Assembly (NCBI GenBank): GCA_951406725.2
Contig: OX597817.1
Coordinates: 170,128,001-170,192,000, forward strand
DNA length: 64,000 nt
Reading direction: 5' to 3'
From: Octopus vulgaris
Taxonomy: Eukaryota
Position numbers and translations under genes: made by a program. Shown here in pieces: positions 30,142 through 59,869 of this stretch. Each line of letters begins with the position of its first letter. Position 1 is the stretch's first letter. The notes beneath the pieces are model-generated. The model saw only the letters and a list, made by a program, of their open reading frames with translations. It searched no databases and was not told where the DNA came from.

Positions 30142-30374
30142 ACACACTGTAAAATGGCAAATGAGTGGAGAAAATAAAAACTGTTGAGAGGATCATCAAG
30201 TCATGTCTTGCCAAGGACACAACAACCTATATATTGTTGGACCCATGATGATAGCAATTATAGTGCTGAGGATGATCATAATGATAACCATTACTGCAAC
30301 AATGACTCCGGTCTATCCTTAAATACAGAGTAACCATTTGTAAAAAACAAAACCAAAAAGGCAAGAACAATATA

Positions 30375-30937
30375 TTGGGTTGTCCGGAAAGTTTGTGCCG
30401 ATTTTTAAAGGAAAGAAAAAGGTCAGTAAATACTTGGCATTACATCTTAAATCAACCAAATATGAACCATTTTGTTGCACAATGCGTCTCCGTCTTTCCT
30501 TTAACTTGAAAATACCCTCTTCCCAGAATTGAGGTGGTTTCATGGCAAAGAATTCATCAAGGTATCTTTTTACGTCATCCAAGGAATTGAAATTTTTACC
30601 ATTTAGACTATTTTGCAGAGTGGAAATCTGAAAGAGCAATATCTGGTGAATATGGAGGGTTGGAGGGTAGGGTAACACATCCCAACCAAGCTGCAGCAAT
30701 TTTTGTCTGGTTCCCAAAGCATCAAGTGCTGAAAATGAACTTTCTTATCTTCCATTTTAAAGGGTTATAGAATTAACACAGGTTATAGGAACATAAACCT
30801 TCTTCCATGAAAAGATAGTGTAAACTGTGCTCTAAATAGAGGTGTAGTCAAATCCTATTTTATGGACTCAACCATGTTCTAAAATAAGTTGAAAGGTAAG
30901 CTACTATAAATTGGCAAAAACTTTCCGGACAACCTAA
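30375..30937 (-). mobile_element. Internally deleted mariner inserted in the last CATSPERE coding segment
   Basis: TIRs TTGGGTTGTCCGGAAAG / CTTTCCGGACAACCTAA with TA duplication; transposase C-terminus LGWDVLPYPP..FWEEGIFKLKER..NGSY. Confidence 0.92.
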
Positions 30938-31884
30938 TAAAAGAAATATTTCACATTTTATGAGAGACACAGAGTGGCCAACAGGGACAATATTCTTACA
31001 GTTGACTGATGCTACATGGACAGTAAATTTCCTATCAAGTGTTTCATGTGCATACCAATTCTCCTTAAAGTAATATGAAATAGGTTTTTTTAAGTGGGGA
31101 CCCATTAATTATTTGCTATGCACGTATATTTTTCATAATGTTGGGAAATTTAGTTGTTCATGCATCATTAGTTGTGGCTGACCCCCAAGTGCAAGTCTAA
31201 ACTTGAAATATTAATTAATTTGTCATTACTATATTAACTATCATTCCAATTTTGTTGACTCCAAAGAAAAGTAGCATTCTGTGAGCTGCTTTTCTGTGGA
31301 CTGATGGTGTATCAGAAGCCAAAACCCATTGAAGGCTTTCAACATAGTTCTTTTTTTTTTTGCTATATAGAAGTGAATGAAGTAGTATAGACATAGCTCA
31401 TCTCTTTGCTATAGACATTTTCTTCTGGGGGTATGTAAAGAAGCTTGACCAAAGTTAGACAAAGTATGCTGAAAAGCACACAATGAAAAATGATGCACTC
31501 ATACTATTAAGATCTCTATCATTGTTATAAAAAAACTTTGAAAATAACATGAAAAAAACCCAGTGCTTTCTTTTTTGCAATAAACACAAAGTTTGCTTAA
31601 TTAACATTTCAAGTTCAAACCTGAAACTAATAACTAAAGGGATCAACTAATTCTGCTACCAACAGGATAAAAATTATAACTGCATTGCAGAAAATTGATC
31701 ATCACCCTCATACTTTGACAGATGCCAAACTATGATGCCAAAGTTACTAAAGGCATACACTACTTATATCAATAAGAAGTTCAAGAATAGATTGACTATT
31801 ACAAAGAAATGAACCACTTTAGATATGAATTACAAATGTTATTTTCACATCCCAATAATTGTTTTAATATTTATCATTCCATGA

Positions 31885-32098
31885 AGGCAGTGAGTTGGTA
31901 GAATCGTTAGCATGCTGGACAAAATACTCAACAGCATCTCGTTTGTCATTACGTTCTGAGTTCAAATGCCACCAAGATCAACTTTGCTTTTCATCCTTTC
32001 AAGGTCATTGAAATACGTACCAGTTGAACACTGGGGATTGATGTAATTGACTTACCTCCTCCCCATAAATTGCTGGCCTTGTGCCAATATTTGAAACC
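31885..32098 (+). mobile_element. SINE family B, older copy
   Basis: 18-bp TSD AATATTTATCATTCCATG (31866-31883 and 32099-32116). Confidence 0.85.
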
Positions 32099-34040
32099 AA
32101 TATTTATCATTCCATGCCAGGTAGTTAAGCTCTGGATTAGCCATCATCAAACAGACTCATGATCAAAGCCATTCCAGACATGACCAGGCACGAATATATG
32201 GTTAAGAAGCTCACTTTGCAAGCACACTGTTTCAGGTTCAGTCCCACCATAATGCACTTTGGGCAAATATCAACTATAGCCCTAGGCCAACCAATGCCTT
32301 GTGAGTGAATTTGGTAGAAGGAAACTGGGAAGAAGCCTGACATATGCATATGAAAATGTGTGCATAAGTTTGTCCCCTATCACTACTGTACAACTAGTGT
32401 TAATTGTTTATGTCACATGTAACTTAGCAGTTTGACATATGAGACAGATAAAGTACTGGATCAATTTGTTCAGCTAAACCCTGCAAGGATGTGCTCCAGC
32501 ATGACCAGTCCAATGAATGAAACAAAAACAGTCACAGTATACCTAGACTACATTATCCAATATGTTATCTTTTCTTACAATAGTAGAATGTAGCTTGAGA
32601 AATATTCGACTGCTATTTCTTGCAAGCTGAGAAATTGCATAGTGGCTTTCTTGTTGGTTTATTGATGTCGATGATGACAGAGGTGCTGGCAGTAAATTGT
32701 TCACTTGTAATAATCAATGAGAAGATAGGCTATCATACTGCATTAGAAATAAAATATTTTCTCACACAAATCATTTAGAATTTTACTGTAACCTACTTCC
32801 TTTCTTTATAATATTCAATGTGTTTTTGTGTTACTTTATTTGTGTAGGTAGTTTATAAATTTTAAATAGAATCTGTCAAAGTCAAAGCTTTCCTTTCGTT
32901 TTAAGACAACTAGTCTATGTTTGAAGCACTTGATGGATTTACTGTCCTTGCAGCATCTCAAGACCAAGGCATATTCTATTGCAGTTGGTGAATTCCGACA
33001 CTAAACATGACAAGCCATTCTACTAAAGTAGATAATTACCAACTTTTCTAGCAACGATTGTGTTACAAGAGCAGATTAAAAAACTGGAATTTCTCACACT
33101 ATCATCAGCTGTCAACGAGTTGGACAAAGAAAAACAAATGTGTGTGCCATATGCGCTGTTAATTTTAGGATTTGTTTCACATCATTCCGTCATTATATCT
33201 TTCCGAGCTAATGCTTCTTGGGGTTGCTTCCTTTTACTGTGACTATTAGTGTTTAAAACCTCATTTGCCTTTGAAATGCAAGAAGATTTGCTTGAGATTC
33301 TCAGTTGTAATCTCTTGAATATATTTGGGAAACACCAACATCAGCTGATTAAATCAACTCCTAGTGTTTGATTGGTACCTTTTTTTTGTTTTACTGACCC
33401 CTTCCCCAAAGGATAAAATTAGCTCAAACAATTCTGCTAACCCACTAAATGTGTTCAATGAGACAGATATCAAAATTTGAAGGGCAAGAGGAAAATATTT
33501 GATTCCCAGATTGTTTGTCCTCAGAAATGCAGTCTCCGATATTCCCTCTCTGTTCATGTGTTTCTTAGAGACACTATTGTACAGCAGCTTCATACTACAA
33601 AATCACTTGCACCATCTTCAGTATGGGAAGATTGGCAAATGTCATGAGCATTGTTCCTCCAATTTTTACTATCTTATAAAAATAAAGCAGAAAACATTTA
33701 AAGGAAAAAATTTCCAGACACAATTTTTCTTTTTTCAAATCTATAGTAATAAGGATAATTTTGGTCTATTAACAGCATCAGGTTATTTCACTTAAAATAT
33801 TTCTAATCACTATATTTTATGTAAACACAAATATATTTTATGCAAACATCTTATTCCTCTTCTCTGGTTTTGGGTTTCTTTCACCAAATAAATTTACAAG
33901 CAGTTTAGCTTCATTGCGATGCTCAAATAACAGAAAAGGTAAGATGATAACAAAAAACCCCCACAAATTTTGTTAAATAATTGGGCTATACCATCAGTTA
34001 TTGTAACCATTAGAATGCATTAAAAATATGAACTGAGAAA

Positions 34041-34202
34041 TGGTGCAGGAGTGGCTGTGTAGTAAGAAGCTTGCTTCCCAACCGCATCATCCCGGGTTCA
34101 GTCCCACTGCGTGGCACCTTGGGTAAGTGTCTTCTACTCTAGTCTCAAGCCAATCAAAGCCTTGTGAGTGGATTTGATAGATGGAAACTGAAAGAAGCCG
34201 GT

Positions 34203-34255
<53 letters not shown>

Positions 34256-34705
34256 GGTATGGGCCCAGTCACTGCAGAGTGAGGTAGGCTTTAGAGTTCA
34301 TGAAAAAAACAAAAGACAAAGACAGGTGGCGTACAAAACAAACAGATGTATTAGTATAACGCTCAGGAATTGAAAAAAGTCTTTAGCGTTTCGAGCCTAT
34401 GCTCTTCTACAGAAAGGGGCACAGAAAAAAACAAGGAGAGAAACAAGGAGAGAAAAAAAATGTGTGCAGTGGCTACCAATGTGTGTATATATTTGTGTGT
34501 GTCTGTGTTTGTCCCCACACCATCCCTTGACAACCGACGTTGGTGTGTTTACATCCCCGTAACTTAGCGGTTTCCGCAAAAGCAACTGATAGGCTAAGTA
34601 TTAGGCTAACAAAGAATAAGTCCTGGGGTCAATTTGTTCAACTAAAGGCGGTGCTCCAGCATGGCCACAGTCAAATGACTGAAAAAAGTAAAAGAATAAA
34701 AGAAT
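34041..34705 (+). mobile_element. SINE family A interrupted in its microsatellite by a Penelope-type fragment (34255-34477)
   Basis: SINE halves flank the insert; minus strand CTGTAGAAGAGCATAGGCTCGAAACG is a hammerhead-like core. Confidence 0.85.
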
Positions 34706-36053
34706 AGAATACACACACACAGAAGTGGAAGAACAGATAAAAAAAGTAACAGGCTGATTAAGTTCCACATTACATAAAATATTTTTAGCAAAGCTATGTG
34801 GAACTGTGTCAGCCTATTACTAGTGTGTGTGTGTGTGTGTGTTGTAACTAGCCAAGGTATATATTTGATATATGCCTATCAATGTATCAGTCAAAACTCT
34901 CCAAATGGGCTTGTCTCCTACAATCTTCTGTTATTAATTCGTTTTGTTTGTCTATGGGTGTGTAACAATACATGTTATGCAAATTTAACATTATTTAGAA
35001 GTTTATAGAATCAATATTCCAAAATATTTTTCCATTTAAGTATTTTGTGGTTTATGGAAAAACCATTTATTGCTCATTTAAAAGAAAATTTACAAGAAAA
35101 AACTTAATGTATTTATTTTTTCATATACAGAGAAGTAAATAACAGTATGTATACACAAATATAACTTGATAGGACATATTTCACTGCATAATCTATGGCT
35201 TACATAAATTCTTATTAACAGATGATCAAAATTGCAAAACTACATTAGATTTATTCTTCTAACTGCTCTCAGCAAAATTGTTTATTTAAAGATTGGATAA
35301 AATACTAAGAAATTTGTACTGGATTCAGGCATTTAAATATTGCGAAATGAAAAATGATAATAACCATTCCCTCTCTCAGTCTCTCTTTTAAAGATTTTCT
35401 GAATTGTTCAGACATGTCGCAAACATATCATATCTGCATATATTGAAACTGTTTCGATTTCCTACATTCTCATTTATCAGAGAGCCTAACATCAAAGATC
35501 CTAATATCAAAGATCTAAATTCCTTCAAAATCAGATTGAGCGAGTTCTTAAAATTCATCACAAACCAGCAGCATGCAAATCAAAAGGCTGCCTAAAACTA
35601 CTGCTTCAAACATGAACAGAATTATATATGGTGAGGATTCATCCAAATAGAATATTTGTCTAAAACAGATAAGACAGCTACAAGCAACATCATTGCAAAC
35701 AATAATAATACACACATGTCCATGCTACCACCACAACCTTTTGTATTTAGATCAAAGGAAATCAGAGTATATCATTTTGATTAGTAAGGAACTAGCATGC
35801 TACGTGGGAACAGTTGCTATATACAAAGTGTTTGCAATATGATTGTGAGATTTAAATTTCCGGGAGCTAATAATATGAACATATGAATTTAATCTGTTGC
35901 ATCTAGCCATTAAAATATGCCTTTCAGTAAGACAGTAAGCTTCACTTACTCTGGTCTGACTGACTGAGAATCTTACTCCATACGCAAGATGATCATGGAA
36001 AGAATACCCTGATCTCATAAATATTACCATCATTGTATTATAAAAATTACTTA

Positions 36054-36221
36054 GCAGGAGTGGCTGTGTGGTAAGTAGCTTGTTTACCAACCACATGGTT
36101 CCGGGTTCAGTCCCACTGCATGGCACCTTGGGCAAGTGTCTTCTACTATAGCCTCGGGCCGACCAAAGCCTTGTGAGTGGATTTGGTAGACGGAAACTGA
36201 AAGAAGCCCGTCGTATATATG

Positions 36222-36265
<44 letters not shown>

Positions 36266-36528
36266 TGTGTGTGTTTGTGTATCTGTGTTTGTCCCCCTAG
36301 CATTGCTTGACGACCGATGCTGGTGTGTTTATGTCCGTTACTTAGCGGTTCGGCAAAAGTGCTGGGGCACTGCCTTTTTTAGTCGAGCAAATCGACCCCG
36401 GGACTTATTCTTTGTAAGCCCAGTACTTATTCTATCGGTCTCTTTTGCCGAACCGCTAAGTGACGGGGACGTAAACACACCAGCATCGGTTGTCAAGCAA
36501 TGCTAGGGGGACAAACACAGACACACAA

Positions 36529-36580
<52 letters not shown>

Positions 36581-36742
36581 GACAGGCTTCTTTCAGTTTC
36601 CGTCTACCAAATCCACTCACAAGGCATTTGTTGGCCCGGGGCTATAGCAGAAGACACTTGCCCAAGATGCCACGCAGTGGGACTGAACCCGGAACCATGT
36701 GGTTGGTTAGCAAGCTACTTACCACACAGCCACTCCTGCGCC
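36054..36742. mobile_element. Tail-to-tail inverted pair of family A SINEs
   Basis: A + copy (36054-36359) abuts a - copy (36360-36742); both lack their 3' tails. Confidence 0.9.
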
Positions 36743-37409
36743 TATGTCACTTTTATTTAATCTATGTCACTTTTATTTAAACTGATTTGAATTTCTTTTG
36801 CCTCTCCTATTTCCCCACTACCTCTACCTCAGTCACCCAATACTAAATGCTGTTAATCCTCTTTCCTCAGAACTATTTCATTCTGAAACTCCCTTTTCTC
36901 ACAGATAGTCCTTTGATCACAAATCTGCAAATATTTAAACCAGTTAATCAAAGTAAAATACTAAAGTCAGTGAGTAAAAAGAAAACTAGTGTCTGCACCA
37001 ACAAAACATCAGTCCAGTAAATTTTACAAAATGGATTAACCTTTGGCTGCCCAAAGCATTTACATAAGTTTGTTCTAAACATCTATGGTTGTTTTAAGAC
37101 CTTTAGTTAGCTCCTGTTTCATATGTTTTGAGTAATATAAAGCTTTCCTTTCATGACCATATGTTACATTGGTTGTTGAAGAAATTAGGAATGCATATCA
37201 CATATAATGCACGGACACCAGAGAAACATGTCCTGTATATCACATGTGACACACAGAACAGGCAAAGGGTTAAGTTTGTGAATCATGAGATGTAGTTAAT
37301 AGTCTGAACATAAAGAATTTGTCATTACTGTAAATCATTAATAGAATTATTAAAATTTGTGATATACTCTCTTCAAATACTATTTGCTAGTAAAAAAAAT
37401 TTATACATA

Positions 37410-37580
37410 GGCGCAGGAGTGGCTGTGTGGTAAGTAGCTTGCTTACCAACCACATGATTCCGGGTTCAGTCACACTGCGTGGCACCTTGGGCAAGTGTCT
37501 TCTACTATAGCCTTGGGCCGACCAAAGCATTGTGAGTGGATTTGGTAGACAGAAAATGAAAGAAGCCCATCGTATATATG

Positions 37581-37634
<54 letters not shown>

Positions 37635-37843
37635 TGTGTTTGTGTGTGTCTGTGTTTGTCCCCCATAGATCGCTTGACAACCGATGGTGGTGTGTTTACA
37701 TCCCCGTAAGTTAGCGGTTCGGCAAAAGAGACCGATAGATTAAGTACTAGGCTTACAAAGAATAAGTCCTGGGGTCGATTTGTTCGACTAAAGGCGGTGC
37801 TCCAGCATGGCAACAGTCACATGACTGAAACAAGTAAAAGAGT
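37410..37843 (+). mobile_element. SINE family A
   Basis: Full-length match. Confidence 0.93.
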
Positions 37844-38965
37844 GACTATGGTGTCTGTTAATCTGTCAAAAAAATATTCTTTGTTGTAAAAAAAAAAAAA
37901 ATCAATTTTTAATGAAGGGGGTGATTTATTTAAAGGAAAAACTAAAATGATTATCTTTTTACTTTCTTTACATTTAGGTATTTATAGCCTAAAAGTAGGG
38001 AAGTTGCATTAGTACAATGATGAAGTGTTTCTCCCCGCTTTTGGAAAGTAGTTTGTTCTCATGTTATTTAAAGCTTAAAATAAAGATCCCTACCTTCCCC
38101 CTTCATCAAACACACACACTTCAGTTGATAGAAATATCAATAAATTTCTTAATACCTGAAATTAAGTCACATTTATTGACTTTTGAAATACCATATTTTG
38201 TGCTATTGGTGCTAGTGACATTTCACAGTGTCTTTATTGTATTTTATTATAAACCTTACAAACTGACATCAAACATCTAAATCACAGTGATTTAATGGTA
38301 GAATCCAGCTTTGTATGAAACATGACACCTAAATATATCCATATAATATGATGACTCTAATCCATCCTATTTAAGTTATTGTATAAATGTAATTCTATAG
38401 GAATAATCTATAAATTGACATGACAGTTAATATCAAGAACCTGTAGAACCTAACAACGACAGGAAACTGGTTCAGCTCCTTTATTACTTTCTAGCAATGT
38501 CAGTTTATTAAAATTAGAATTTTACAGACTATTAACCTCATCTTTATATACATTCAATATATTTATATTTACATTATGTATGTCTACTCAAGTAGATGTA
38601 AATACTGTATATAACTATAGACTCCGTAGAAGATGAGGTAAATGTTCTAGAAAAATTATAACATCTTAATAATAGCAAGTTATCTAATTATCTAAGATGT
38701 TTAGATGCTTACACTATTGTGATTCTATTCATCTTTATCCATCTTTTAGCTTATATTTGTTTCAGTCATAAACACTGCAGTTACACTCGAAGAGTTTATA
38801 TGAATAAATTGCACCCGGTACTTATTTTTAAATCTGGTACTTATTATTTTGGTAGCTTTTGTCAAGCTGCTAAGTTACAGGGACATAAACAAACAAACAC
38901 AAGTTGCTATGAGGTGAAAGGGGGATAAATAGAAACACACACACACACACATATATGTATTCTAT

Positions 38966-39221
38966 GCCGGTGGCACGTAAAAAGCACCAACCGATCGTGG
39001 CCGTTGCCAGCCTCCCCTGGCACCTGTGCCGGTGGCACGTAAAAAGCACCCACTACACTCACAGAGTGGTTGGCGTTAGGAAGGGCATCCAGTTGTAGAT
39101 ACACTGCCAGATCAGACTGGAGCCCGGTGCAGCCTCCTGGCTCCCCAGACCCCAGTCGAACCGTCCAACCCATGCTAGCATGGAAAACGGACGTTAAACG
39201 ATGATGATGATGATGATGATG
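38966..39221 (+). mobile_element. Retroposon family C nested in an old family A copy (~38740-39370, minus strand)
   Basis: Core and (GAT)n tail; flanks align to family A. Confidence 0.85.
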
Positions 39222-39968
39222 AACTTCCACACAGTTTCCACCAACGAAATTCACTCTCAAGGAACTGGTTAACTTGTGGCTAAAACAGAAGACACTTGCC
39301 AAAGATGTTGCACAGTGGGACTGAACCTGAAAACATGTGGTTTCAAAGCAAGCTTCTTAACCAAACAGTTATATTGAAATGCTCTTCCAAATTCCTCATC
39401 TTTCAGTCATTTTGTTGTCTTTCTTTCTATAGCTGTTGTAATTGTATAGCCACAGGTCATCCCTGATTGGGCACATCTATGGCACACAGACAGCAATCGA
39501 TGAGTGAGGTAGTAGATCAATATTATATGCATGTATACTCTGCCATTTCTCTTCAACTAATGCCCCTTAGTAAACACATCAATGATACAAAACTCTCATT
39601 CACATCTGCCTGCTGTCAAGAGAAATTAATATCTATATTGAATAATTTTATTTAATATACATGTATTTGAAGGTGATATATCAGTAGATTGCAGTGAAGG
39701 ATTTACATGTCTTGGAAGGTATCTTACTAAACTAATCACTAGTTAGGAAGTTTAGGCCCTGAAGACATCTATAACTAACAAGTTTAACTAAATATTTTAT
39801 TAGTAAAAATAAGCATGCGTATTATGTGTATATGTGTGTACATGTGTCTGTATACATAGATATGATCACACTGCACAGCAACTTCAACAGGTATCTTCAT
39901 TTAGCAAAAGCCCTCTGAGCGAAATTTGATAAACAGAAAATGTACAAAAGCTTGTCAGATATATGTTC

Positions 39969-40022
<54 letters not shown>

Positions 40023-40299
40023 TTCCATGTGTGTGTGTGTGTGTGTGTGTGTTGTTGTGTACATATATATAATCACACAGCACAGTAACTTCAGCAGGTA
40101 TTTTCATTTAACCAAAGCCTTCTAAGCAAAATTTTTATAAACAGAAATTGTATGAAAGCCTATCATGTGAGAGTGTGTGTGTATGTGTGTATGTGAGAGA
40201 GAGAAAGAGAAAGAAAGACAGAGAGAGGGATGGGAGGTGAGGAAAGGAGAGAGATCATTTTCACATCCATTTTTCCATGCTTGCATGGGTTGCAAGGGT

Positions 40300-42060
40300 G
40301 TTCTCCAGCAGTGTCTCCTCACTATTTGTTGCAGTCTTTTGTGGGTACACCATATGGAATTTCAGCTTATTCTTGTCTTGCATCTCAAGTATGACCATTT
40401 CCTGATAGCACTTATAATCATATATTCTTTTCAACAAACAAAATCATTAATCGTAGTTAAATCTACTTCAGAGTTTCTTCATTCTAGACTTTGCTTCCAT
40501 GTCTGGCATTTTCTCTCAAAGTCTTCAACAAATTCACCTGAGAACTATATCATCTAAATATAAGACAGAATCAGCTGAGAACTATGTTTTTGGCATATGA
40601 GTTCTGATGGGCAGACAATCTAAATCTTCACTCTATTGGGTAGGAGGACTACAATAAACAGAAGGCTGGTGATGAAGTCCTAGTGGACCCCTACATGCAT
40701 GCTAAATTCATCACTGAGCTCATAGCTAACTCCCATCTTACTGACCGTACCACAGTTTGCATGGCTTTCATAAAGCATTTGTCTATCCCTATGTTTCTTA
40801 ATGGCCACCACACTACAAAACATGGAATCCTCCAGGTCAATGAATGCTAAATGTAGTCCCCCTAAGTACTCAGTTATATGCTGTGCTGGTATGAACCCAA
40901 ACAGCATCTTATCTAGACCAATATTTTTTACAAATAAACGTGCTTCAACTGTTTCAATAGCTAGCATAACCTGCCCCTGTTAATAGGATTCCTTGGGAGG
41001 TGCAATGGCCCAGTGGTTAGGGCAGCAGACTCGCGGTCATAGGATCACGGTTTCGATTCCCAGACCGGGCGTTGTGAGTGTTTATTGAGTGAAAACACCT
41101 AAAAGCTCCATGAGGCTCCGGCAGGGGATGGTGGTGATCCCTGCTGTACTCTTTCACCACAACTTTCTCTCACTCTTACTTCCTGTTTCTGTTGTACCTG
41201 TATTTCAAGGGACCGGCCTTGTCACTCTCTGTGTCACGTTGAATATCCCCGAGAACTACGTTAAGGGTGCACGTGTCTGTGGAGTGCTCAGCCACTTACA
41301 CGTTAATTTCACGAGCAGGCTGTTCCGTTGATTCGGATCAACCGGAACCCTCATCGTCGTAACCGACGGAGTGCTTCCATTCCAATATGATTCCTCTAAA
41401 GTTGCCTATCTCTAGAACATTTCCCTTGCTCTTATAACACTTGATGATTTTGCTCCCACCGGTCATTGGGTATGGCACTGCCCTGTTCTACCCGGTTCAT
41501 TACGCAAGTTACTTAACGCATGGCCTACTTCTCCAGATATAGTGAGCATTCAGCGACTATATCTGATTATCCAACTGCATTCATATCTTTAATTATATTT
41601 ACAACTATATAGTAGCCAATTTTGAGACCCGATTTCTCTGTTGAGCCTACTTAGTGTAAACAAAAATTCTCTCAAGCAACCCCTTCACTCAACGACCTTT
41701 TGTAGTAGTATTGCTATACCTCTTCCTTTACAGCATCATTGATAGCATCTTCACTTCTATCACTCTAAATGCACTTCTAAGACATCTCCATTTTTTCTGG
41801 TACATTTCTTTGAAATCTAGAATAACTCATGTTTCTTATCCTTTCATGGTAATACATGAACATATTTTTAACTTTTGGCTTCTCCACTTACTAAGTACAA
41901 CTAGTGCCAAACTACTTGTTCTTTACCTTTCCCTAGTTTTTACAGGCTTATTTAGTATACCAACAAGGCACCTATCTGACTGGAACCTTGCACCAACCAC
42001 AGACTTGGGTCTGTTGCTTGCAACAGTTGTCTCATAGAAACTCCAAATCATCCCCTATGT
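40300..42060 (-). mobile_element. Degenerate RTE LINE interrupted by a family D SINE
   Basis: RT motifs FGFIPA..LHLAFIDLE..SDEFSMHVGVH (ORF 40680..40967). Confidence 0.75.
40999..41385 (+). mobile_element. tRNA-derived SINE family D
   Basis: A box TGGCCCAGTGG and B box GGTTTCGATTCCC; near-identical to 47306-47687. Confidence 0.92.
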
Positions 42061-42471
42061 TATAAGTCTTTACCTGCTTCCTCCCTCTTGTCACATATAC
42101 TGTACTTCTTTGAACCAAAAACTTGTTGAAGGACCTTTCAGTTCTCTATCTTCCTTCTCACGGTAGTTTTGTATTTCTGAGTACCTTAAGCTCTTACTCT
42201 GATGTCCGGCCCCTCCCTTTGGTGCTTCTACAAAGAAATTTTGAAAAGTTCCCCAAGTTCTGAAAAAAATCGATAAATTCGACATGGGGTCGAGAATCTC
42301 AGCTTTTTATATGCAACACATTTTCTGTTGTAGTTTTCGCAACTTGCAATCAATTTTCACGAAACTCATGGTGAAGCTTAATGTTACCCTAAGAAACTTA
42401 ATTCTGATGTTAGTTTTCAATGCAATACCTTACCATCAGAAAAAATCGATAAAATCATGCCATTTTGGGAA

Positions 42472-42800: not shown

Positions 42801-42823
42801 TACTCTAATGTCATTGATCACTT

Positions 42824-42897
42824 ATGAATGTAGAGTCGTACATGAATGTAGAGTCGTACATGAATGTAGAGTCGTACATGAATGTAGAGTCGTACAT
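42824..42897. repeat. Four perfect tandem copies of 18-bp ATGAATGTAGAGTCGTAC
   Basis: Directly visible; no spacers. Confidence 0.95.
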
Positions 42898-43302
42898 TTT
42901 GCACTAGGCAAAAATGCAGCATTCACATCTGTCTATCCCATGTGTACAGTTCATTCTGGCTCACAGATTTCCTGACGTTAGTGTTACAAATTGTTAGGTC
43001 ATTTGTATCACGGAACTCCAGGAGCAGATACATCATTGTGTGGAAAGCAGAATCAGAAGAGCATTGGATAAAATACCTTATGGTACTCAGTTACATCTCT
43101 AACATTCCTTCATCCAAGATTAATAAGTATTAGCCAAACTGAAAAAAAAAATAATCATAATAAATCTACATTTCTCACTTGCAATCAATAACTTGATAGC
43201 ATGTACCATCCTTTTGCTAATTGTTTGAAATGCCTATACAATGACAAGCTGACACATTAACACTTCTGCTCCTCCTATTCAGGAAAACAGCAAGGATGTG
43301 AG

Positions 43303-43344
<42 letters not shown>

Positions 43345-43391
43345 TGTGTAGGAGCTGCCCCATCACTGAGCAGGTATTATATTTTTATGAA

Positions 43392-43621
43392 GGCGGCGAG
43401 CTGGCAGAAACGTTAGCACGCCGGGCGAAATGCTTAGCGGTATTTCGTCTGCCGTTACGTTGTGAGTTCAAATTCCGCCGAGGTTGACTTTGCCTTTCAT
43501 CCTTTCGGGGTCGATAAATTAAGTACCAGTTCCGCACTGGGGTCGATGTAATCGACTTAATACCTATGTCTGTCCTTGTTTGTCCCCTCTAAGTCTAGCC
43601 CCTTGTGGGTAATAAAGAAAT
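43392..43621 (+). mobile_element. SINE family B, young copy
   Basis: TSD AGGTATTATATTTTT. Confidence 0.93.
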
Positions 43622-43809
43622 AGGTATTATATTTTTAAAATTGACCTCTATGGGAAGTGAACTTTGAGCTGAGGGAGCTAGAACAAATGTTGCAACACAT
43701 TTTGTCTGATGCTTGAATGATTACCAGTCAAAGTAATGGGCTCAATATAATTTACGAAGCCCTTGAAACAGGTGTCCTATAAAAGTTGTAGTTCAATGAT
43801 CGAAACTAG

Positions 43810-44432
43810 TTATATACATATATATATATGTGTACATATACATACAGTATGTATATGTGCATATACATATATACATATATATACATATACATACATATAC
43901 ATACAGTATGTATATGTGCATATACATATATACATATATATACATATACATACATATACAAATATATATGTACATATACATATATATACATATATATACA
44001 TATACATACATATACAAATATATATATGTACATATACATATATATATATGTACATATACATATATATATATGTACATATACATATATATATATGTACATA
44101 TACATATATATATACATATATACATATATATACATATATACATATATATACATATACATACATATACAAATATATATATGTACATATACATATATACATA
44201 TATATACATACATATACAAATATATATATGTACATATACATATTATATATGTTTACATATACATACTTATACAAATATATATGTACATATACATATTATA
44301 TATGTTTACATATACATACTTATACAAATATATATGTACATATACATTATGTATGTATGGATATACATACATACATACATACATACATACGTACATACAT
44401 ACATACCTACATACATACATACATACACAAAT
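43810..44432. repeat. ~620 bp complex (TA/CA/TACA) satellite
   Basis: Directly visible; source of the Y/I/H/T ORFs. Confidence 0.97.
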
Positions 44433-46533
44433 ATACAAAGGAATCCTGTAGAACAGTGACTCACGTGGCACTTATATGTGAGAGCTAGAAAAGGCGAGGA
44501 AAGAAAGGAGAGCAACGCACTGAAGTGTGTAATAGTTTTGAGTGATTACTGAATCTTACATTATGAAAGATAAATGTTCAATTTTTGAGATGAATAAAAG
44601 CTTTAAAAATAATGAAAGCTATCATTAATACCAGGATTATATATTTCTTGTATCTTGTCTCTTCAAGTTATCAAGTCATTATTAACTGGTTGTTAAGAAT
44701 CAAAGGAAAAGAATATAAAGAGAGATGTTAAAATGTGGGATCAATAAACTCATTTGATGTGCACATATGAGTCTGTCTATCATTCCCTCTCCACACTCTG
44801 GCCAGCACCCTACCTTTCTCTAACTCTTTTCCGCTCTACCTTTCTGTTTTTTAATTAGCTCTCTCTCCTTCTCTCTCTCTCTCTCTCCTTCTCTCTCTCT
44901 CTCTCCTTCTCTCTCTCTCTCTCTCTCTCTGTTGGTATGTATAGGAGAAACATGCAAGAAAACTATTACTAGCTGGTAAGTTGTTTTATTTGATCATAAT
45001 ACTACATAGTTAACCTTTCAAAATATGAAACTTAAAATATTTTAAGATACAGGGTCCCACAAGGAAGCCTGACAATTTTAAAACAGTGGTAATTTGACTG
45101 ATGGAAATGAGGGGAAGTTGAGCAGCACATATTCAGTGATGTTGAGTATAAGTACTGGGCTTACAAAGAATAAGTCCCGGGGTCGATTTGCTCGACTAAA
45201 GGCGGTGCTCCAGCATGGCCCCAGTCAAATGACTGAAACAAGTAAATGTGATTTTGTGATTTTGTTAGCTATGAAGCAGTGGATGCACAAAATAGCTCTT
45301 TTGCAATCAATATCTATTTTAAAAAATCATGATTGTGTTACTCAAATGAAGTGAAATTTTCACTGGTATCTTATTGTGGATAATCACTGAAAAGTGTCTA
45401 ACTAGATTTCTATATTGTTATGAGCAGAAAACTTCAGGTTGGCCAGTTCCGTATTGAAAAAGAAAATATGGAGTGTGTTTGAAGTGTCCAAATACTGGAG
45501 ATTATTGAGGCATCATTGTTCTGTATCAAACCATTGCGCTACACTAAGCATTTCAGATCAATGAGCAAAATATATTGCACCATTTTTACAATTTTAATCC
45601 TTATAAGACTGCGACTGCATGAAATATAGCAATGAGATAGGAAATCTGGAAAACACTAGCAAAAAATATGCTTGCAACGTGACCAGATAACTTCTTTTTT
45701 TACTTCATGGATGACAGAGTGTGTTCCCATCTATTTTATTATGTAAATAAGTGAAACTTCCACTACTGAATGGACAGCAAACAACAACAACTTCATGGAC
45801 AGTTCCTTCACTGCTTACATGCAACAGTGAGGAGCTTTGTAGCAAATTTTGGTGTGAGAGATCCATATTTCTGTAAAAAAAGGGCAGATATTTCTTAACA
45901 GAAAATGCTGATGGCTTTGTGATCATGTTGCGTAAATTCCTGTATTCATTTCTTTGCCTGACCCTGTAGCAATGGGGATAAATAGATCGAATGGGTGGGA
46001 AGATGTGAAAGGCAATAAAACAAAGGAAAAGCAGAGAGCGAGGTAAATAAAGAAGCTGTTAGAAGAGACAGGGTGAGCGGAGAACAAGCTGGGAAATTAA
46101 GAGAGAGGAACAGAGGGAGAACTGGTGTAAGAGAATGAAAGAGTAAAGGTGAGAGGAGAGAAAGTATCAATACAAGAGAGATAAAATAGTTACAAAACAG
46201 GTAGCATTCATTGTGTCTAATAGCATTATATATATTCATTCATCATTGTTTAACGTCCGTTTTCTATGCTAGCATGGTTTGGACGTATATATATATATAC
46301 GGAGTGGTTGGCGTTAGGAAGGGCATCCAGCCGTAGAAACACTGCCAGATCTGACTGGGCCTGACGAAGCCTTCCAGCTTCACAGACCCCAGTTGACCCG
46401 TCCAACCCATGCTAGCATGGAAAACGGACGCTAAACGATGATGATGATGATGATGATGATATTGTCAGTGGATCATATATCCCAAAAACAAGCACACTCT
46501 AAAAGTTAGAACAGTAATGTATTTACATTACTG

Positions 46534-46778
46534 TAAGAAGTTAATTATATGGCCAGCCACACAGTGACCAATGATTTCACATCCATGAACCGCTTAGCCT
46601 TATAGATGACTTATCAGACTCCGATAGCTGAGGACATACAACCTCTCTTCAAATGTCCAGTTTGAAGAGAGGTTATAAGTTCACGGCCATCAGAGTCTGA
46701 CATATCATCTATAAAGCTAAATGCTTTATGGATGCAAAACCATTGGTCACTATGACTGGCCATATAATTAACTTCCTG
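46534..46778. mobile_element. Foldback/MITE-like ~245 bp imperfect palindrome
   Basis: Arms of ~120 bp around a TGTCCAG loop at 46654-46660. Confidence 0.8.
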
Positions 46779-46794
46779 TAAATATATATATATA

Positions 46795-47167
46795 TTCAAC
46801 AGTAATACATAGAACTCAACTCTGTCAGTCATGAATGACCATGGGTGCACTTAAGAGGTTCCCCTCCAGGGTACAAGTCTGGGCAGAAAGTCGCCTCACC
46901 AGCGAATGCACAACCTAGGGTTGCTTTTATGGAAGACTAGCAGTCGCCCACGCATACCAGCCTCCTCTCTCCACACCACTGATGTTATCCAAAGAAAAGG
47001 CAAAGGCCGATACAGCTTAGCACTAGTGATGTCACAATTCATATCTACAGCTGAGTGAACTGGAACAACATGAAGTAAAGTGTCTTGCTCAAAAACACAA
47101 CATGCAGCCCAGTTCGGGAATCAAACTCACAACTTTACGATCATAATCTCAACACTCTAACCACTGA
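46795..47167 (-). mobile_element. tRNA-derived SINE related to family E
   Basis: Minus-strand head CAGTGGTTAGAGTG..GAGTTTGATTCCC and TGTGTTTTTGAGCAAGACACTT core. Confidence 0.75.
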
Positions 47168-47305
47168 AAGTATTACAGTGTTACTGCACAAATTATAAGT
47201 GTGACCCACAATTGAGTTTCAATTATACCTTAATAATCTCAAAAATGCTGTACTGTTATTTCAGTCCTGTAGAGACACTCAATAATAAAACATCAGTGAG
47301 TGACA

Positions 47306-47687
47306 GGCGCAATGGCCCAGTGGTTAGGGCAGCGGACTCGCGGTCGTAGGATCGCGGTTTCGATTCCCAGACCGGGCGTTGTGAGTGTTTATTGAGCGAA
47401 AACACCTAAAGCTCCACGAGGCTCCGGCAGGGGGGATGGTGGTGATCCCTGCTGTACTCTTTCACCACAACTTTCTCTCACTCTTACTTCCTGTTTCTGT
47501 TGTACCTGTATTTCAAAGGGCCAGCCTTGTCACTCTCTGTGTCACGCTGAATATCCCCGAGAACTGCGTTAAGGGTACACGTGTCTGTGGAGTGCTCAGC
47601 CACTTACACGTTAATTTCACGAGCAGGCTGTTCCGTTGATCGGATCAACCGGAACCCTCGTCGTCGTAACCGACGGAGTGCTTCCAC
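47306..47687 (+). mobile_element. tRNA-derived SINE family D, young copy
   Basis: Perfect 12-bp TSD CAGTGAGTGACA (47294-47305 and 47688-47699). Confidence 0.95.
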
Positions 47688-48128
47688 CAGTGAGTGACAA
47701 AACTATTTATAAATAATTTTTTGATCATCACTTGTGCAAAAGAATAGAAAAAAAAGTCTTGTATGATTTTTATATTGGAGAAAAAAATGTCACATTGTGT
47801 GGGCAAGTAAAAGCGTTATAACAATAATGTATAATGCATAGAGGAGGAGAGGTGTTATAATGGTATTATATAACCTGTGGAGGAGTAGAGATGTTCCTAC
47901 AATACTGTACAGTGTGCCAACGTTTTGTAACAATATTTAATATCGTGAGCCATAGTAAATCTTGTAACAGTACTGTACAATATGTAGAGCCATAAAGATG
48001 TTGTAATAACATTCTAAAGCATGAAAAGTAGTAAACACTTCAAAATGTAACAATACTATAAAATATGTACAAGAGTAAATGAAAGTGTTCTAATAATATG
48101 TATAGTGTGAACAGAAGTAGAGATGTAA

Positions 48129-48787
48129 GGCAGCGAGCTGGCAAGGCGGCAAGCTGGCAGAAACGTTAGCACGCCGGGTGAAATGCTTAGCGGTATTTCG
48201 TCTGGCTTAACGTTCTGAGTTCAAATTCCGCTGAGGTCGACTTTGCCTTTCATCCTTTCGGGGTCAATAAATTAACTACCAGTTAGGCGCAGGAGTGGCT
48301 GTGTGGTAAGTAGCTTGCTAACCAACCACATGGTTCCAGGTTCAGTCCCACTGAGTGGCACCTTGGGCAAGTGTCTTCTGCTATAGCCCCGGGCCGACCA
48401 ATGCCTTGTGAGTGGATTTGGTAGACGGAAACTGAAAGAAGCCCGTCGTATATATGTATATATATATGTGTGTGTGTGCGTGTATGTTTGTGTGTCTGTG
48501 TTTGTCCCCCTAGCATTGCTTGACAACCGATGCTGGTGTGTTTACGTCCCCGTTACTTAGCGGTTCGGCAAAAGAGACTGATAGAATAAGTACTGGGCTT
48601 ACAAAAGAATAAGTCCCGGGGTTGAGTTGCTCGATTAAAGGCGGTGCTCCAGCATGGCTGCAGTCAAATGACTGAAACAAGTAAAAGAGTAAAGAGTAAA
48701 GAGAGGGTTGAGGTAATCAACTTAATCTCTTTGTCTGTCCTTGTTTGTCCCCTCTATGTTTAGCCCCTTGTGGGTAATAAAGAAATA
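48129..48787 (+). mobile_element. SINE family B with a family A SINE (48286-48700) nested inside
   Basis: Family B halves flank a full-length family A copy. Confidence 0.92.
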
Positions 48788-49696
48788 AGGAGTAGAGATG
48801 TTGTAACAATACTGTACAGTGTGCAGAGTGGTCAGTATTTTGACAGAACTGCACAGTGTTTAACAATGTTGTTAGGATATTGTACAATGTGTAGAGGAGC
48901 AGAAGCATGTGAAAACTATTGTACAATGTGTAGGAATAACAGAATTATGTTATATAAAGCAGTGCTCCACAACTGGTATGTGGTTGTTGTTGTTGTTGTT
49001 AAGCAGCAAGACGGGTAAGGGTGATTAGGGGATGGTCTAGGGCTTAGGGGCGGGAGACCCAAGACCTTGGAAAAAAAAACAATTTTGGTCGTCTTGTTGT
49101 AGTCGAGGGCTCTTCGTCGACACCTGACACCACTGGGAGGTGGCCTTCGAAGTCACTGGAAATGGAGATCTCCAGGTCCAAATTCTTGAACGGCCAACTG
49201 GTATGCTGCAGCATACTGGTGTGCCACGAGACGATGCTAGGTGTGCCGCAGTGTAACTTGAATATAATTTTTTTTTTCCTAGTTTTAGTTCAAGTGTGCC
49301 ACTGAATTTTGAAAAGAATATAAGTGTACTGCAAGTGGAAAATGGTTGCAAAGCACTGGTATAAAAGTTTGATGAGTAGGAACATTGTAACAATGTGCAG
49401 AGGTGTAGAAGTGTTGTAACAAAACTGTATAGTGTGTACATGGCTTGTAACAAAAGTATTTAATGTGTTGATTTGTAATATTGGGTAACGTGTAAAGAAG
49501 AAGTAGGTAATGTAACAATATCGTACAGGGTATAGAAGAGTGGTAGTTTGTAAGAATAGTAGACAGTGTGAAGAACAACAGTAGAAGAGTAATGACAATG
49601 AGGTGTGTAGAGAAGTAGAAGTTGTAACAGTGTACGGCATGTATAGGAATAGGCATTGTAGTATAGTGAACACCATGTAGTGGTATACAGAAACAA

Positions 49697-49925
49697 GGCG
49701 GCGAGCTGGCCGAAACGTTAGCACGCCGGGCGAAATGCGTAGCCGTATTTCGTCTGCCATTACGTTCTGAGTTCAAATTCCGTCGAGGTCGACTTTGCCT
49801 TTCATCCTTTTGAGGTCAATAAAATTAGTACCAGTTACACGCTGGGGTCGATATAACCGACTTAATCCGTTTGTCTGTCCTTGTTTGTCCCCTCTGTGTT
49901 TAGCCCCTTGTGGGTAATAAAGAAA
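49697..49925 (+). mobile_element. SINE family B
   Basis: TSD GGTA(T/C)ACAGAAACA. Confidence 0.92.
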
Positions 49926-50649
49926 CAGGTACACAGAAACAAAGGTGTAATGATACTGTATAGTTTGCAGAGGTGATGAAGTGTTGTGACAATACTGTAC
50001 AGTGTGTAGAGAGCTACTGAGTTATAAAACCCATCATACTGCTTCAATAACATCATTTCATTAACATCAATGTAAATATAACACAACCACTTCCTAAATA
50101 GAACAGTTATTAAATTGATAATATCTATTTCAGGAGACATTATGATATTCCTAATAATAAAATCTATTTAAAAGTGAACATAATTTAGTACATTTAAATA
50201 GGGGGTTCTGCAATAGTACATTTTTCATGGCGGTTTGATCACTAAACCCAAAGTGTAAAGAAATTAATTGAGAATAAAGTATAATTTAATATCATACTCA
50301 TCATCATCACTTTACATCCATTTTTCATTCTGACATAAAGGGATTGATTTAAATTCAACAAATTATTAAACCTATCTTTAATGTATTTTGAGAAAAGGGA
50401 AGGTGATGCTTTTGATGTCCATGCCGTATTGAAGACATTAATGATATAGAATATTGAAAGGTATTCTTCTGACAAGGTGCTAAATCATCTGCAGAAAATT
50501 TAATTGATATGAAAGAATAGGAGAATGAAATAGAAAAGATATAACATCTTTACATAGAAATTGCCAAAATGGTTGATGCCCTTTGTTATATTACACCATG
50601 TTAATTACGACACCTTATACTGTCATTCCAGCTTAATTAGTAAAGTAAT

Positions 50650-51273
50650 TACTCTCTTTTACTTGTTTCAGTCATTTGACTGGGGCCATGCTGAATCACC
50701 GCCTTTAGTCAAGCAAATCGACCCCGGGACTTATTCTTTGTAAGCCCAGTACTTATTCTATCGGTCTCTCTTGCCGAACCGCTAAGTGACGGGGACGTAA
50801 ACACACCAGCATCGGTTGTCAAGCAATGCTAGGGGGAAAAACACAGACACACAAACACACACACACATACATATAATCGAAGGAGAGGGGCTTTCTCCGT
50901 CCGGATTGCGGATCCGTGGAACAAGCTGCCAGACGAGATGGTGAAGATGTCAACGACCGCTTTGTTCAAAGTCTCCCTTGACCTCAAGTGGCCTGAACTC
51001 TTTACATGAACACCACCCTGTACATAACTCCATGTCCGCCTACATGGCCTTGCTTTTTGCTTTTTGAGCCAAAAAAGTAACTAACTAACATATATATATA
51101 TATATATACATACATACGACAGGCTTCTTTCAGTTTCCGTCAACCAAATCCACTCACAAGGCATTGGTTGGCCCGGGGCTATAGCAGAAGACACTTGCCC
51201 AAGATGCCATGCAATGGGACTGAACCCGGAACCATGTGGTTGGTTAGCAAGCTACTTACCACACAGCCACTCC
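50650..51273 (-). mobile_element. SINE family A interrupted by a CR1 3' fragment (50877-51089, + strand)
   Basis: The insert is the same CR1 family as 161-692, with a CTAA tail. Confidence 0.9.
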
Positions 51274-52011
51274 TGATAACTTTACAAATAAGACATCATT
51301 ACACAACCTGGTGTTTTCTTTTGTTTTCTATCAAAAACAAACTTCAATCAAGATGACAGATAGGAAACTACAGAAATACACACTCCCTACATTAAATGAC
51401 ATGGCAGAAAATCTTTTTAAGAAAATGCTAGAATGTCTAGTTTTAATGTTTTATATCTACAAAACATTAGATTAATAGAAAACTAAAACACAGTGCAATT
51501 AGCAATGCATCATCAGTGCAAACTAATTACTTTCTCATATTATTTCTAAACTGTAAAAGTATAATTTAGGTCAATGTCAATATGTATAGCTGCAAGAAAT
51601 GATAGGGGAAAGCTGGTGTCAGCTATTGGTAACAGGTGGACTTTACTTTCTAAAGATAACTTCAGTTTGATAGATAACTATCATTCAGATATGTTTTCAA
51701 ACAAAGTGTTATTGAATATACATTTCAATAGTAAGAAACTCTCAAGAGAACTGCACAGCAGAGGGTCTTCAGAGAACACACTGCCCCCTCAAGCAAGTGT
51801 TTTAACTGTTAACTTCCTACAGTCTAAGGGAGCTGGGCTGCACCCATGTCATGATTCCTGGGCACTCTTCTGCTGACACTTCTTAGCTGCTTGGATATCA
51901 GAGACTCATGCATTTAAACTGCTTGGTTTCATCCAGCAGGAGCTCCTCTTTGTTGACTCGGCTTTCAAACTTATATAAAAAAAAATGGCTTTAACAAATA
52001 CCTGACATATC

Positions 52012-52429
52012 TCTTTACTCTTTTACACTTTTACTTGTTTCAGTCATTTGACTGCGGCCATTCTGGAGCACCACCTTTAGTCGAGCAAATCGACCCCCAG
52101 GACTTATTCTTTTTGTAAGCCTAGTACTTATTCTATGAGCCTCTTTTGCCGAGCCGCTAAGTTACGGGGACGTAAACACACCAGCATCGGTTGTCAAGCG
52201 ATGCTAGGGGGACAAACACAGACACATAAACATATACACACACACTTATATATATATACATATATACGACAGGCTTCTTTCAGTTTCCGTCTACCAAATC
52301 CACTCACAAGGCATTGGTTGGCCCGGGGCTATAGCAGAAGACACTTGCCCAAGATGCCACGCAGTGGGACTGAACCCAGAACCATGCGGTTGGTAAGCAA
52401 GCTACTTACCACACAGCCACTCCTGTGCC
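52012..52429 (-). mobile_element. SINE family A
   Basis: Full-length match. Confidence 0.93.
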
Positions 52430-54012
52430 TTTTTTTTAATGTATTTTTTTTTTTTAGAAACAAAATACAACAAACTAATGACTTTTTAATTCCTATATTA
52501 ACAAGATGTCATTACAAAAAGACACAATTTTCTGAATAACAATAAATCATCAACAACTTGCCATGTGGTTCAGAAATTTGCTAGGCAACCACATACTTCA
52601 GAATTCAGTCTCACTGCACAGCACTTTGGACAAGCATGTTCTACTGCACCTCCCTGGTAGAATGTGGCAGACAGGAACTGGGCAAAAGCTCATTGAATGT
52701 ATTTGCTTGTGTGTGAGTGTACACACACATACATACACACCTTCTGCTTAGTTTATAAATATATATATATATTGTTTATGAGCATTTGATTTTTTCCTTC
52801 CCAAAGGGTCTTTTGGCTCAATGTTTACACATTATTATTTATAGCTTAATCTATTTTGAGTTTCACCATTAAATAAAAATGCAATAGTTTATCAAATATA
52901 TATACACACACGCACACATAAACCAAACATATACTGATACAAATACACACAAACATGCACACACTTCCATGTGTATATGTATCTTTTGCTGATATACATT
53001 GGCAATCAATATAAACATCAGCAAGTCCCTTGAGATAATAGTTCTGTATCACATTAGACTCCCTTGTCACTGTCCAACAGAAATGCTGTGAATCAGTGAT
53101 TGGCCAAGGACCAACAGCACAATCATTCACAAATTGTGATAAATAAATGGTAATAAATCAATATTTTTGACAAACACAATTCCCTCCTGTCATGTCATAT
53201 CAGAATGTCGATAGTTTATTTGTTCTTCAGTCACTGTTCCTTGAAATTCATTTGAGGTCAATTAAAACTCATCTAAGATAATTCTCAGTTAAAGAAACAA
53301 AAGAAATGCTCATTCAAAGGGGAAAAAATTACATTTATAGGATATTACCTTTTGATATATGAATGATTGCAGAGATAAAGAGATAAGACAAATAATTGTC
53401 TTTATTAACAGATATCTATGAAGAAAAATAAAGGCAATTACATTGCACTATCAATCAAGTTCGATAATATTAATTTAGGGAGACAGAATATAGTGGAATA
53501 TTTCATCAGTTGTATATATTAAGAGTATACACTCTAATATAAATACGAAAGTAAGTTGTTAATAATAAACAAAATATATTAGATCATGACTCGCTCTCGT
53601 ATTATTCACAGAGACGGCTTTTGCTATATCATATTTTATACCTCCAAGGTAAAACACCAAAATGTGCACAAGAAAAATAATTAAATATTTTGTGAGTTGT
53701 TATCATCACCATCACTACCATATGCACAAGAAACTACTACAATACCATTCACCATCTTGAAATTAATCTAATATTTCAGCTTTACAATTCAAGAAGTTAT
53801 GAAGTTCTTCAAGAGTTTTAACCTCATTCACATATAGTTTATTTCAAGAAAGATTTCTGCCAAGGTTTTCAAAATAACTACCAAATAGAAAATGACATGT
53901 TAAAACAAACTGTATCACTGTGCATATGTGATGCAAGTTAAGAGAAATGCTTGAAAAAAGCAAAACTGAGAATGCTCCTGGCAGAGAAAAACTAAGGAAT
54001 TAAGTGGTGAGG

Positions 54013-54143
54013 ATGGTTCCGGGTTCAGTCCCACTGTATGGCACCTTGGGCAAGTGTCTTCTGCTATAGCCTCGGGCTGACCAAAGCCTTGTGAGTGGAT
54101 TTGGTAGACAGAAACTGAAAGAAGCCCGTCGTATATATGTATG

Positions 54144-54231
<88 letters not shown>

Positions 54232-54457
54232 ACGTGTGTGTATATGTGTGTGTGTCTATGTTTGTCCCCCCCAACATCACTTGACAACCGACGCTGGTGT
54301 GTTTACATCCCCGTAACTTAGTGGTTCAGCAAAAGAGACCGATAGAATAAGTCCTAGACTTACAAAGAATAAGTCCTGGGGTTGATTTGCTCAACTAAAG
54401 GCAGTGCTCCAGCATGGTCGCAGTCAAATGACTGAAAGAAGTAAAAGAGTAAAGAGT
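54013..54457 (+). mobile_element. 5'-truncated SINE family A
   Basis: Starts just before the B box; tail intact. Confidence 0.92.
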
Positions 54458-54879
54458 ATATGGCTGATATTATCATCATAAAACTTTGTATAGTAATAAA
54501 TATTAAATTTCTCACACTTCTAAAAGTCTGTGACTGTCATATTAAGGTAGGTATATACACCTCTGGCTTGCAAGTTCAAACCCGACTGTTGTCTCTTTTA
54601 ATTTTTATACTTTCAAGATCAGTTTGACATTATTACACTCCAATACAGTCTAACATCAGCAGTGTTACACTAACAAACAGTATCAACAGTGTCTCACAGT
54701 TGCACTGCACTGGAACCTTGATATATTTATATGTAGTTTTCAAAGAAAAAATAAATGATGGCTAAAATTTAAGAATTTATTTTGAACTGAAAATATTGTC
54801 AGAAGGAAATTAAGTAGGGATTCTATTCATTTAACAATCGCTTTTAACATGAGAATAATAAGGAGGTGAGAAAATGCCT

Positions 54880-59600: not shown

Positions 59601-59869
59601 AGCAAAAACCAAAATCAAGCATCTAAAATATCTGTAAACCATTGTTTGCAGATGACTGTAGATTGCTTGTTCCAGATGAGTCCAGTATATGTGTACTGAT
59701 CAATTCTCAAAAGACCAGGACAAATTTAAATTGTAGGGTGATTAGGTAGAAACATCTGGCTATGTGCAAGAATCCCTTTACTGTCACCAAGTGATTGCAC
59801 ATTCCCTTTCAGATGAAGAAAGAGGTATCAAGCATCAACCCTCCCACTATGAGTGACCCTTCTCTTCTA

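Follow-up and report, generated by a model that had tools for sequence, protein, structure and literature searches.

CATSPERE (Gm7068/C1orf101; mouse chains 7eeb_H and 9ubw_H; Pfam PF22850) is the auxiliary subunit epsilon of the sperm calcium channel CatSper, and Chung 2017 describes epsilon as a protein with single-TM topology. Its C-terminal domain is held in common with CATSPERD (mouse 7eeb_G and 9ubw_G), which arose later in evolution according to that paper. Cai and Clapham 2008 (PMC2572835) describe degenerate CatSper fragments in two birds, chicken and zebra finch, as well as a short piece of CatSper4 in the limpet Lottia; the bird fragments are anchored by synteny and clear similarity.

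The DNA analyzed here, referred to as the window, is a stretch of 64,000 nucleotides from Octopus vulgaris (contig OX597817.1, positions 170,128,001 to 170,192,000). At about 30-54 kb, its minus strand was found probably to carry a unitary, heavily decayed CATSPERE pseudogene; this reading is slightly likelier than chance resemblance, with homology unproven. Like CATSPERE, the locus appears to have the order FVVW ... QTW ... WG-x21-Y.I.N.S ... followed by a single TM near the C-terminus. Unlike CATSPERE, it has no open frame, no significant alignment and no identified signal peptide, and several conserved blocks are missing. With the bird and Lottia fragments it would share a unitary loss leaving short translated fragments. 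Unlike the bird fragments, with their anchors in synteny and clear similarity, the window would hold a multi-exon relic of an auxiliary subunit in a cephalopod.

All candidate exons lie on the minus strand. The most 5' are AG/GT-bounded: a 67-nt piece at 53349..53415, recognized by its splice-site boundaries, and pieces at 50372..50488, 46643..46775 (open in one frame) and 45704..45870. The last three gave no Pfam match, and their likeness to CATSPERE is by eye only. They are followed at 39410..39612 by a candidate exon containing stops and the SIA-x6-CP motif (39500-39468), for which no CatSper match was obtained in Pfam, PDB or representative proteins. The candidate exon at 35390..35659 has no Pfam match and opens with IFYLD, which we take to be a family motif. 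The 3' ends of both are approximate, as is that of the candidate exon at 33420..33672, which contains three TGA stops. The latter carries a block that was absent from the earlier note, DFVV followed by TGA at 33604-33590, with QT.W in frame downstream. Like the WG block it is on the minus strand, and it precedes that block, as the family order predicts. The WG block itself, WG-x21-(TAG)QIINGS at 31187-31098, is contained in the candidate exon at 30955..31196 and is interrupted by stops at 31160 and 31118.

Pattern searches recovered the WG and SIA motifs as previously claimed, on the minus strand, each as the sole match in the window and each with stops. The C-terminal blocks FVVW, QTW and WG...Y.I.N.S are in order, with TGA where the family has W and TAG where the family has Y, but these patterns were composed post hoc and further family blocks are lacking. 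No other place of the type DFVV+TGA...QT.W was found by pattern search in 528 kb. The window-fitted patterns gave one match each in 528 kb, and in Markov sequence totalling 12 Mb their strict forms matched 0 to 2 times, a rarity that depends on the patterns having been composed after inspection of the window. Genome searches with the SIA, DFVV and WG exons returned each only as its own locus, with no second copy. The spacing, put forward earlier as exact and as a mark of the family, is equal in the WG block of mouse epsilon (WG-x21-YEILNYS, by eye) but is x24 in the distant homologue L026 and x22 in organism E. N-Y-x-x-C-F, present inside the WG spacer in mouse and L026, is absent from the window frame, and the conserved EIHGR.D and GCP were not found in frame in the candidates.

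The last candidate exon, at 30196..30317, carries a hydrophobic helix followed by a stop. Its 19-mer at 30303-30247 has a mean Kyte-Doolittle value of 3.3, in agreement with the hydrophobic C-terminal helix described before. Only three such 19-mers, this one included, occur in six frames of the unmasked part of 264 kb. It is preceded by an AG acceptor, lies at most 0.9 kb past the WG block and, by hydropathy, corresponds to the single C-terminal TM that follows this block in the family. The letters of the helix are rich in ATC-like triplets. With three motif blocks and a TM in family order at a dead locus, the last third of the proposed gene could be a relic of epsilon type.

The opposite end of the proposed gene gave a different result. 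The N-terminal signal peptide that had been claimed is mostly the head of a SINE, hence a repeat artefact, and its Met-start read at 54479 was rejected because it enters the SINE head after about 7 codons. The SINE copy is located outside the proposed gene on the minus strand at 54013..54480 (masked repeat 54013-54462), and its head was observed in 5 copies in the window, with 0 expected from shuffles. No other N-terminal signal peptide was established for the candidate gene in the window. The reported run of clean minus-strand acceptors could not be reproduced either: a simple rule of pyrimidine tract plus YAG counted 11 minus and 15 plus sites in 30200-54480, without minus excess.

If the relic is real, its sequence supports epsilon rather than delta. 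By eye, the letters of the window are of epsilon type (QT.W) when set against mouse, with TGA for the first W, whereas in mouse delta the matching block lacks W, and QNW stands in place of epsilon's QTW. T.EQ.G and CI.E, read in the frame next to the DFVV block, are by eye common to the mouse epsilon segment. The original preference for epsilon over delta is favoured by the letters of the DFVV/QT.W block, but it is conditional on homology.

The most serious alternative, thought quite possible and somewhat less probable than the pseudogene, is that the locus is ordinary non-coding DNA between repeats, and that pattern matching on six-frame noise produced the motifs, the AG/GT pairs and the helix rich in Ile. 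The only homologue compared was L026, which is distant and comprises three C-terminal exons. It is a true CATSPERE homologue (Pfam CATSPERD-E_C, E 7e-15; genuine exon 55 bits), closer to mouse epsilon (E 1e-22) than to mouse delta (E 3e-5), and its block DFVVW reappears in the window as DFVV+TGA at 33604. With tblastn and frameshift-aware alignment to L026, the candidates scored 32, 27 and 23, against 51, 48 and 49 for the best background. Local-shuffle p values for matched exon pairs were 0.043-0.076 (the DFVV exon, 0.04-0.08), 0.31-0.35 (the WG exon, about 0.3) and 0.056-0.75, and the best value (0.003) fell on a mismatched pair. Spliced chains to L026 gave p values of 0.55, 0.67 and 0.65, with gap costs too cheap to discriminate in one run. 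In a block-chain test, 103 and 81 places matched or exceeded the candidates, as did ordered pairs in 48 of 70 cases for equal quality; exact 6-mers of L026 also arise by chance elsewhere in the region. The ordered family alignment proposed as a check in the earlier note was thus not obtained: untailored alignments to the distant, C-terminal L026 were no better than background.

Library and genome searches were likewise blank. Pfam scans of window pieces (1, 24 and 27 queries) gave no CatSper family, and PF22850 (CATSPERD-E_C) and PF22844 (Beta-prop_CATSPERE) had no significant match in the window, where a decayed exon may fall below the HMMER filters. PDB searches with window pieces gave no CatSper chain, and the SIA exon had 0 matches at E 0.001 among 1.84 billion representative proteins. 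Two stop-free neighbouring ORFs had no usable match in a protein-atlas search run with no positive control. A genome search with PF22850, PF22844, PF15149, PF15064 and the L026 exon found nothing in the window and none above cut-off genome-wide. In a hunt for homologues, 2 short matches, both bacterial, came from genome contigs and 0 from viral contigs; among metagenome pattern matches, 6 of 7 were unrelated. When a large protein collection was searched with the genuine L026 exon, it recovered only itself (0 of 11 candidates in one search, 1 of 1 in another), and blanks from such collections therefore weigh little.

Chance resemblance is favoured by these null alignments and missing database matches, by the acceptor counts, by one claimed feature being a SINE and by the ATC-like triplets of the helix; neutral divergence and common stops are equally expected in non-coding DNA. 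Against it, a previously unnamed epsilon-type block has the expected place, strand and order, and the hydrophobic window, one of three in the unmasked 264 kb, comes directly after the WG block. The null tests are also low-powered, because L026 is distant and a single sequence.

Another origin for the AG/GT-bounded pieces, as exons of some other minus-strand unit, either an unrelated dead gene or a spliced non-coding RNA, was considered improbable. Several pieces have both acceptor and donor, and the plus strand has A > T across the greater part of -100 to +70 kb, a bias also seen over the minus-strand proteasome alpha gene. However, no convincing Pfam or PDB match to another family was found, and the epsilon-type motifs would be left without explanation. 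In contigs of three presumed-RNA runs, whose tables are repeat-swamped, candidate introns and exons were covered alike at low depth. No joint linking candidate exons was present among the joints listed for these runs, which is evidence neither way.

In sequencing runs from three related organisms, B, D and E, the stops at 31160 and 31118 are unchanged. The frame of the WG block is broken by indels in these related organisms, namely 8 extra bases in D and E and a 1-base deletion each in B and E. Substitutions to organism E in the CatSper-like frames were synonymous in 2 of 11 and 3 of 10 cases. The candidate frames have no purifying-selection signal, and the locus is non-coding, with no intact protein made in these frames. 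An intact, very divergent and still translated CATSPERE can practically be dismissed: one frame is open in some of the candidate exons, but in-frame stops within the motif blocks are common to several organisms, 8-base and 1-base indels are present and the differences are mostly non-synonymous. Disablements, neutral divergence and lack of an intact copy elsewhere, which characterize a unitary pseudogene, were all observed, the absence searches having no positive control; genome searches with two Pfam families and the L026 exon as queries turned up no intact CATSPERE.

The CATSPERE pseudogene would have formed when the channel turned dispensable in the lineage and the gene drifted neutrally. 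During this drift it may have gained stops (TGA for W, TAG for Y) and indels, and SINEs or transposons may have inserted. Onset of decay before the split of organisms A, B, D and E would account for the stops common to related organisms.

It is possible, though doubtful, that the window is a fossil CatSper cluster, with epsilon at 30-54 kb and a gamma-like relic at about 4.6-26 kb, both on the minus strand, and a plus-strand beta-like relic that begins at about 59.7 kb in head-to-head orientation. The beta-like and gamma-like labels are our assumption from likeness by eye, and Pfam, PDB and protein-atlas searches gave these pieces no support. The 150 flanking stop-free ORFs (picked from 253 passing the filter plus one added) matched transposases and the proteasome alpha signature but no family of CatSper or ion channels. 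The surroundings of a YRPP motif at +83 kb resemble a retroelement, and the motif was rejected for that reason.

According to PMC6660944 and PMC13674862, molluscs retain sNHE and sAC but have no CatSper, and no cephalopod CatSper gene or pseudogene was indicated in the literature searched, whose coverage leaves out most subscription journals. A relic that can still be read despite neutral decay could hardly go back to the base of Mollusca. If real, it would shift CatSper loss into the cephalopod tree as a late loss and predict intact CatSper in outgroup cephalopods. A fossil cluster would imply that cephalopod ancestors held CatSper recently enough for legible exons, and that intact CatSper genes likely persist in squid, cuttlefish or nautilus, contrary to the published view of molluscs. 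If the resemblance is due to chance, the stretch is ordinary. An element with 35-nt terminal inverted repeats, presumably of mariner type by its likeness, is inserted at 30373..30939, within the short interval that separates the WG exon from the helix exon.

The minus strand at about 30-54 kb of the window holds, in our somewhat favoured reading, a decayed CATSPERE (CatSper epsilon) pseudogene, judged from a post hoc motif order against nulls of low power. The earlier note's observation was partly confirmed, and the CATSPERE reading is regarded as undecided. The comparison was made with L026, a contig of host origin from a metagenome collection; it was among the seven matches that a scan for a brief family motif gave. 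Three C-terminal exons of a genuine, apparently intact animal CATSPERE were found in L026:66-947, scoring E 7e-15 in Pfam, 1e-22 against mouse epsilon and 3e-5 against delta; the second exon scored 3e-7 against epsilon. The DFVVW of L026 recurs in the window as DFVV followed by TGA at 33604, with QT.W downstream in frame and an acceptor 68 bases before. By eye, T.EQ.G and CI.E of the mouse epsilon segment recur in the adjoining frame. Block order (SIA-CP, FYLD, FVVW/QTW, WG/INxS, TM) matches the family order, the last three being grounded in the L026 and mouse comparisons and the first two standing where we presume the family places them. The three candidate exons tested each match only themselves in the genome, in a search ignoring common words. 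The motif letters are epsilon-type rather than delta-type; according to Chung et al. (2017, PMC5362262), epsilon is ancient and delta appeared at a later stage of evolution.

WG-x21-(TAG)QIINGS (minus, 31187-31098) and SIA-x6-CP (minus, 39500-39468) each occur once and contain stops. The x21 spacing, which had been called exact, is shared with mouse epsilon, where YEILNYS stands 21 residues after WG, but it varies elsewhere, being x24 in L026 and x22 in organism E. The C-terminal hydrophobic stretch was also borne out and is unusual (mean hydropathy 3.3), being one of three 19-mers this strong in six frames of the unmasked part of 264 kb. Between it and the WG piece lie just short flanks and a 567-bp element whose inverted ends measure 35 nt. 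Two other claims failed: the supposed signal peptide, read from 54479, runs after a few codons into a SINE head occurring five times in the window, and the clean minus-strand acceptors gave a simple count of 11 on the minus vs 15 on the plus strand within the interval. Several candidate exons have both AG and GT borders. Unique sequence upstream of the SINE (54480-54780, minus) could, judging by likeness, contain an N-terminal exon; if so, the gene's 5' end would lie past the boundary first proposed.

Chance resemblance is a serious possibility, though a lesser one. The tests untuned to the window were null. No match of window pieces to CatSper families was found in Pfam, PDB or 1.84 billion representative proteins, and genome-wide searches with these families gave nothing above cut-off. 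Protein-collection and genome-contig searches with L026 gained no further homologues, so blanks from protein collections carry little power here. In tblastn of L026 no candidate exon was conspicuous among the matches listed, and chance exact 6-mers of L026 occurred elsewhere. Frameshift-aware BLOSUM62 scores against L026 were 32, 27 and 23 for the candidates vs background maxima of 51, 48 and 49; a codon-decay model, biased to GC-rich DNA, left them equally unremarkable. In shuffle tests (nine regions, three queries, two scorings; 300 local shuffles each) p was 0.043-0.076, 0.31-0.35 and 0.056-0.75 for the matched pairs, and its lowest value, 0.003, came from a mismatched pair. The spliced, frameshift-aware alignment proposed earlier, made here against a single homologue with three C-terminal exons, was null: with three choices of parameters, the p values of the spliced chains were 0.55, 0.67 and 0.65. 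In a block-chain test, 103 and 81 places, and 48 of 70 ordered pairs, were at least equally good. These null tests are low in power. Also against the relic are the variable spacing, the rarity figures, which rest on patterns composed after the window was seen, and N-Y-x-x-C-F, present within the WG spacer of both mouse and L026 but missing in frame from the window. Against chance stands the DFVV+TGA/QT.W block, which the earlier note had not named; it shares the strand of the WG piece, lies 2.4 kb upstream of it as the family order predicts, and is the sole such match in 528 kb.

The locus is decayed. The stretch is present in sequencing runs of related organisms, and both stops of the WG piece are unchanged in organisms B, D and E. 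Eight extra bases precede WG in D and E, three more lie inside the spacer in E, and a single base is deleted downstream of WG in B and in E. Differences to E in the CatSper-like frames were synonymous in 2/11 (11 among those listed; the E contig had 15) and 3/10 cases. Divergence over the piece at 33.6 kb (15/270) equals that over the longer surrounding contig (85/1477). From these shared stops, indels, synonymous counts and even divergence it follows that the DNA is orthologous, about neutral and non-coding in these frames, which is true under both main explanations. Another dead gene or a non-coding RNA is improbable, and an intact gene is scarcely conceivable given the stops, indels and mostly non-synonymous differences. 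In neighbouring minus-strand frames, 6/11 (33357-33602) and 6/10 (31186-31050) of the differences to E were synonymous, one frame being an 82-aa ORF and the other having stops; this is possibly chance.

If real, the CATSPERE relic would be a unitary pseudogene. We infer its identity and history as follows: the channel would have been lost first, and the gene would then have drifted, W and Y codons turning into stops and indels and transposons accumulating, before these organisms diverged. Chung et al. (2017, PMC5362262) describe epsilon as single-pass and as retained or lost in step with beta and gamma. Earlier work found degenerate remnants of CatSper in birds and, in Lottia, a short piece of CatSper4 (Cai and Clapham 2008, PMC2572835), and classed Mollusca as without CatSper (Romero and Nishigaki 2019, PMC6660944), a loss restated in part of a 2026 paper (PMC13674862). 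The words octopus and cephalopod are absent from the main text of PMC6660944, whose species table may be in images, and the literature surveyed, mostly at listing level, indicated no cephalopod CatSper relic.

By eye, two ORFs without stops that share a plus-strand frame, at 59795-59995 (67 aa) and 60155-60340 (62 aa), look CATSPERB-like; Pfam, PDB and Atlas gave no CatSper support for them. Ordered minus-strand pieces (4674-5046, 8590-8826, 11513-11722, 12970-13158, 25600-26200) look CATSPERG-like by eye, and no search supported them.

The window (C4:170128001-170192000) comes from a genome of 2.8 Gb and 227 contigs. Its sequence is rich in AT, a k-mer rule masks about 26% of it as repeats, and its SINE types presumably resemble octopus SINEs. 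Decayed transposable elements lie at about 780-1800, 16782-17375 and 20740-22100, which we take by likeness to be Tc1/mariner or LINE, and outside the window at L018:4075-5136, where Pfam matched transposase. The sole cellular gene seen by Pfam in the 100-kb flanks on both sides is a minus-strand proteasome alpha subunit, presumably PSMA5-like, about 80-90 kb past the right end (Proteasome_A_N, E 9e-15); its exons, L010:9851 to L012:1038, are a serviceable synteny anchor. In unmasked DNA, A exceeds T on the plus strand over most of -100 kb to +70 kb (window coordinates), as expected for long minus-strand transcription, and the excess is absent at 76-140 kb.
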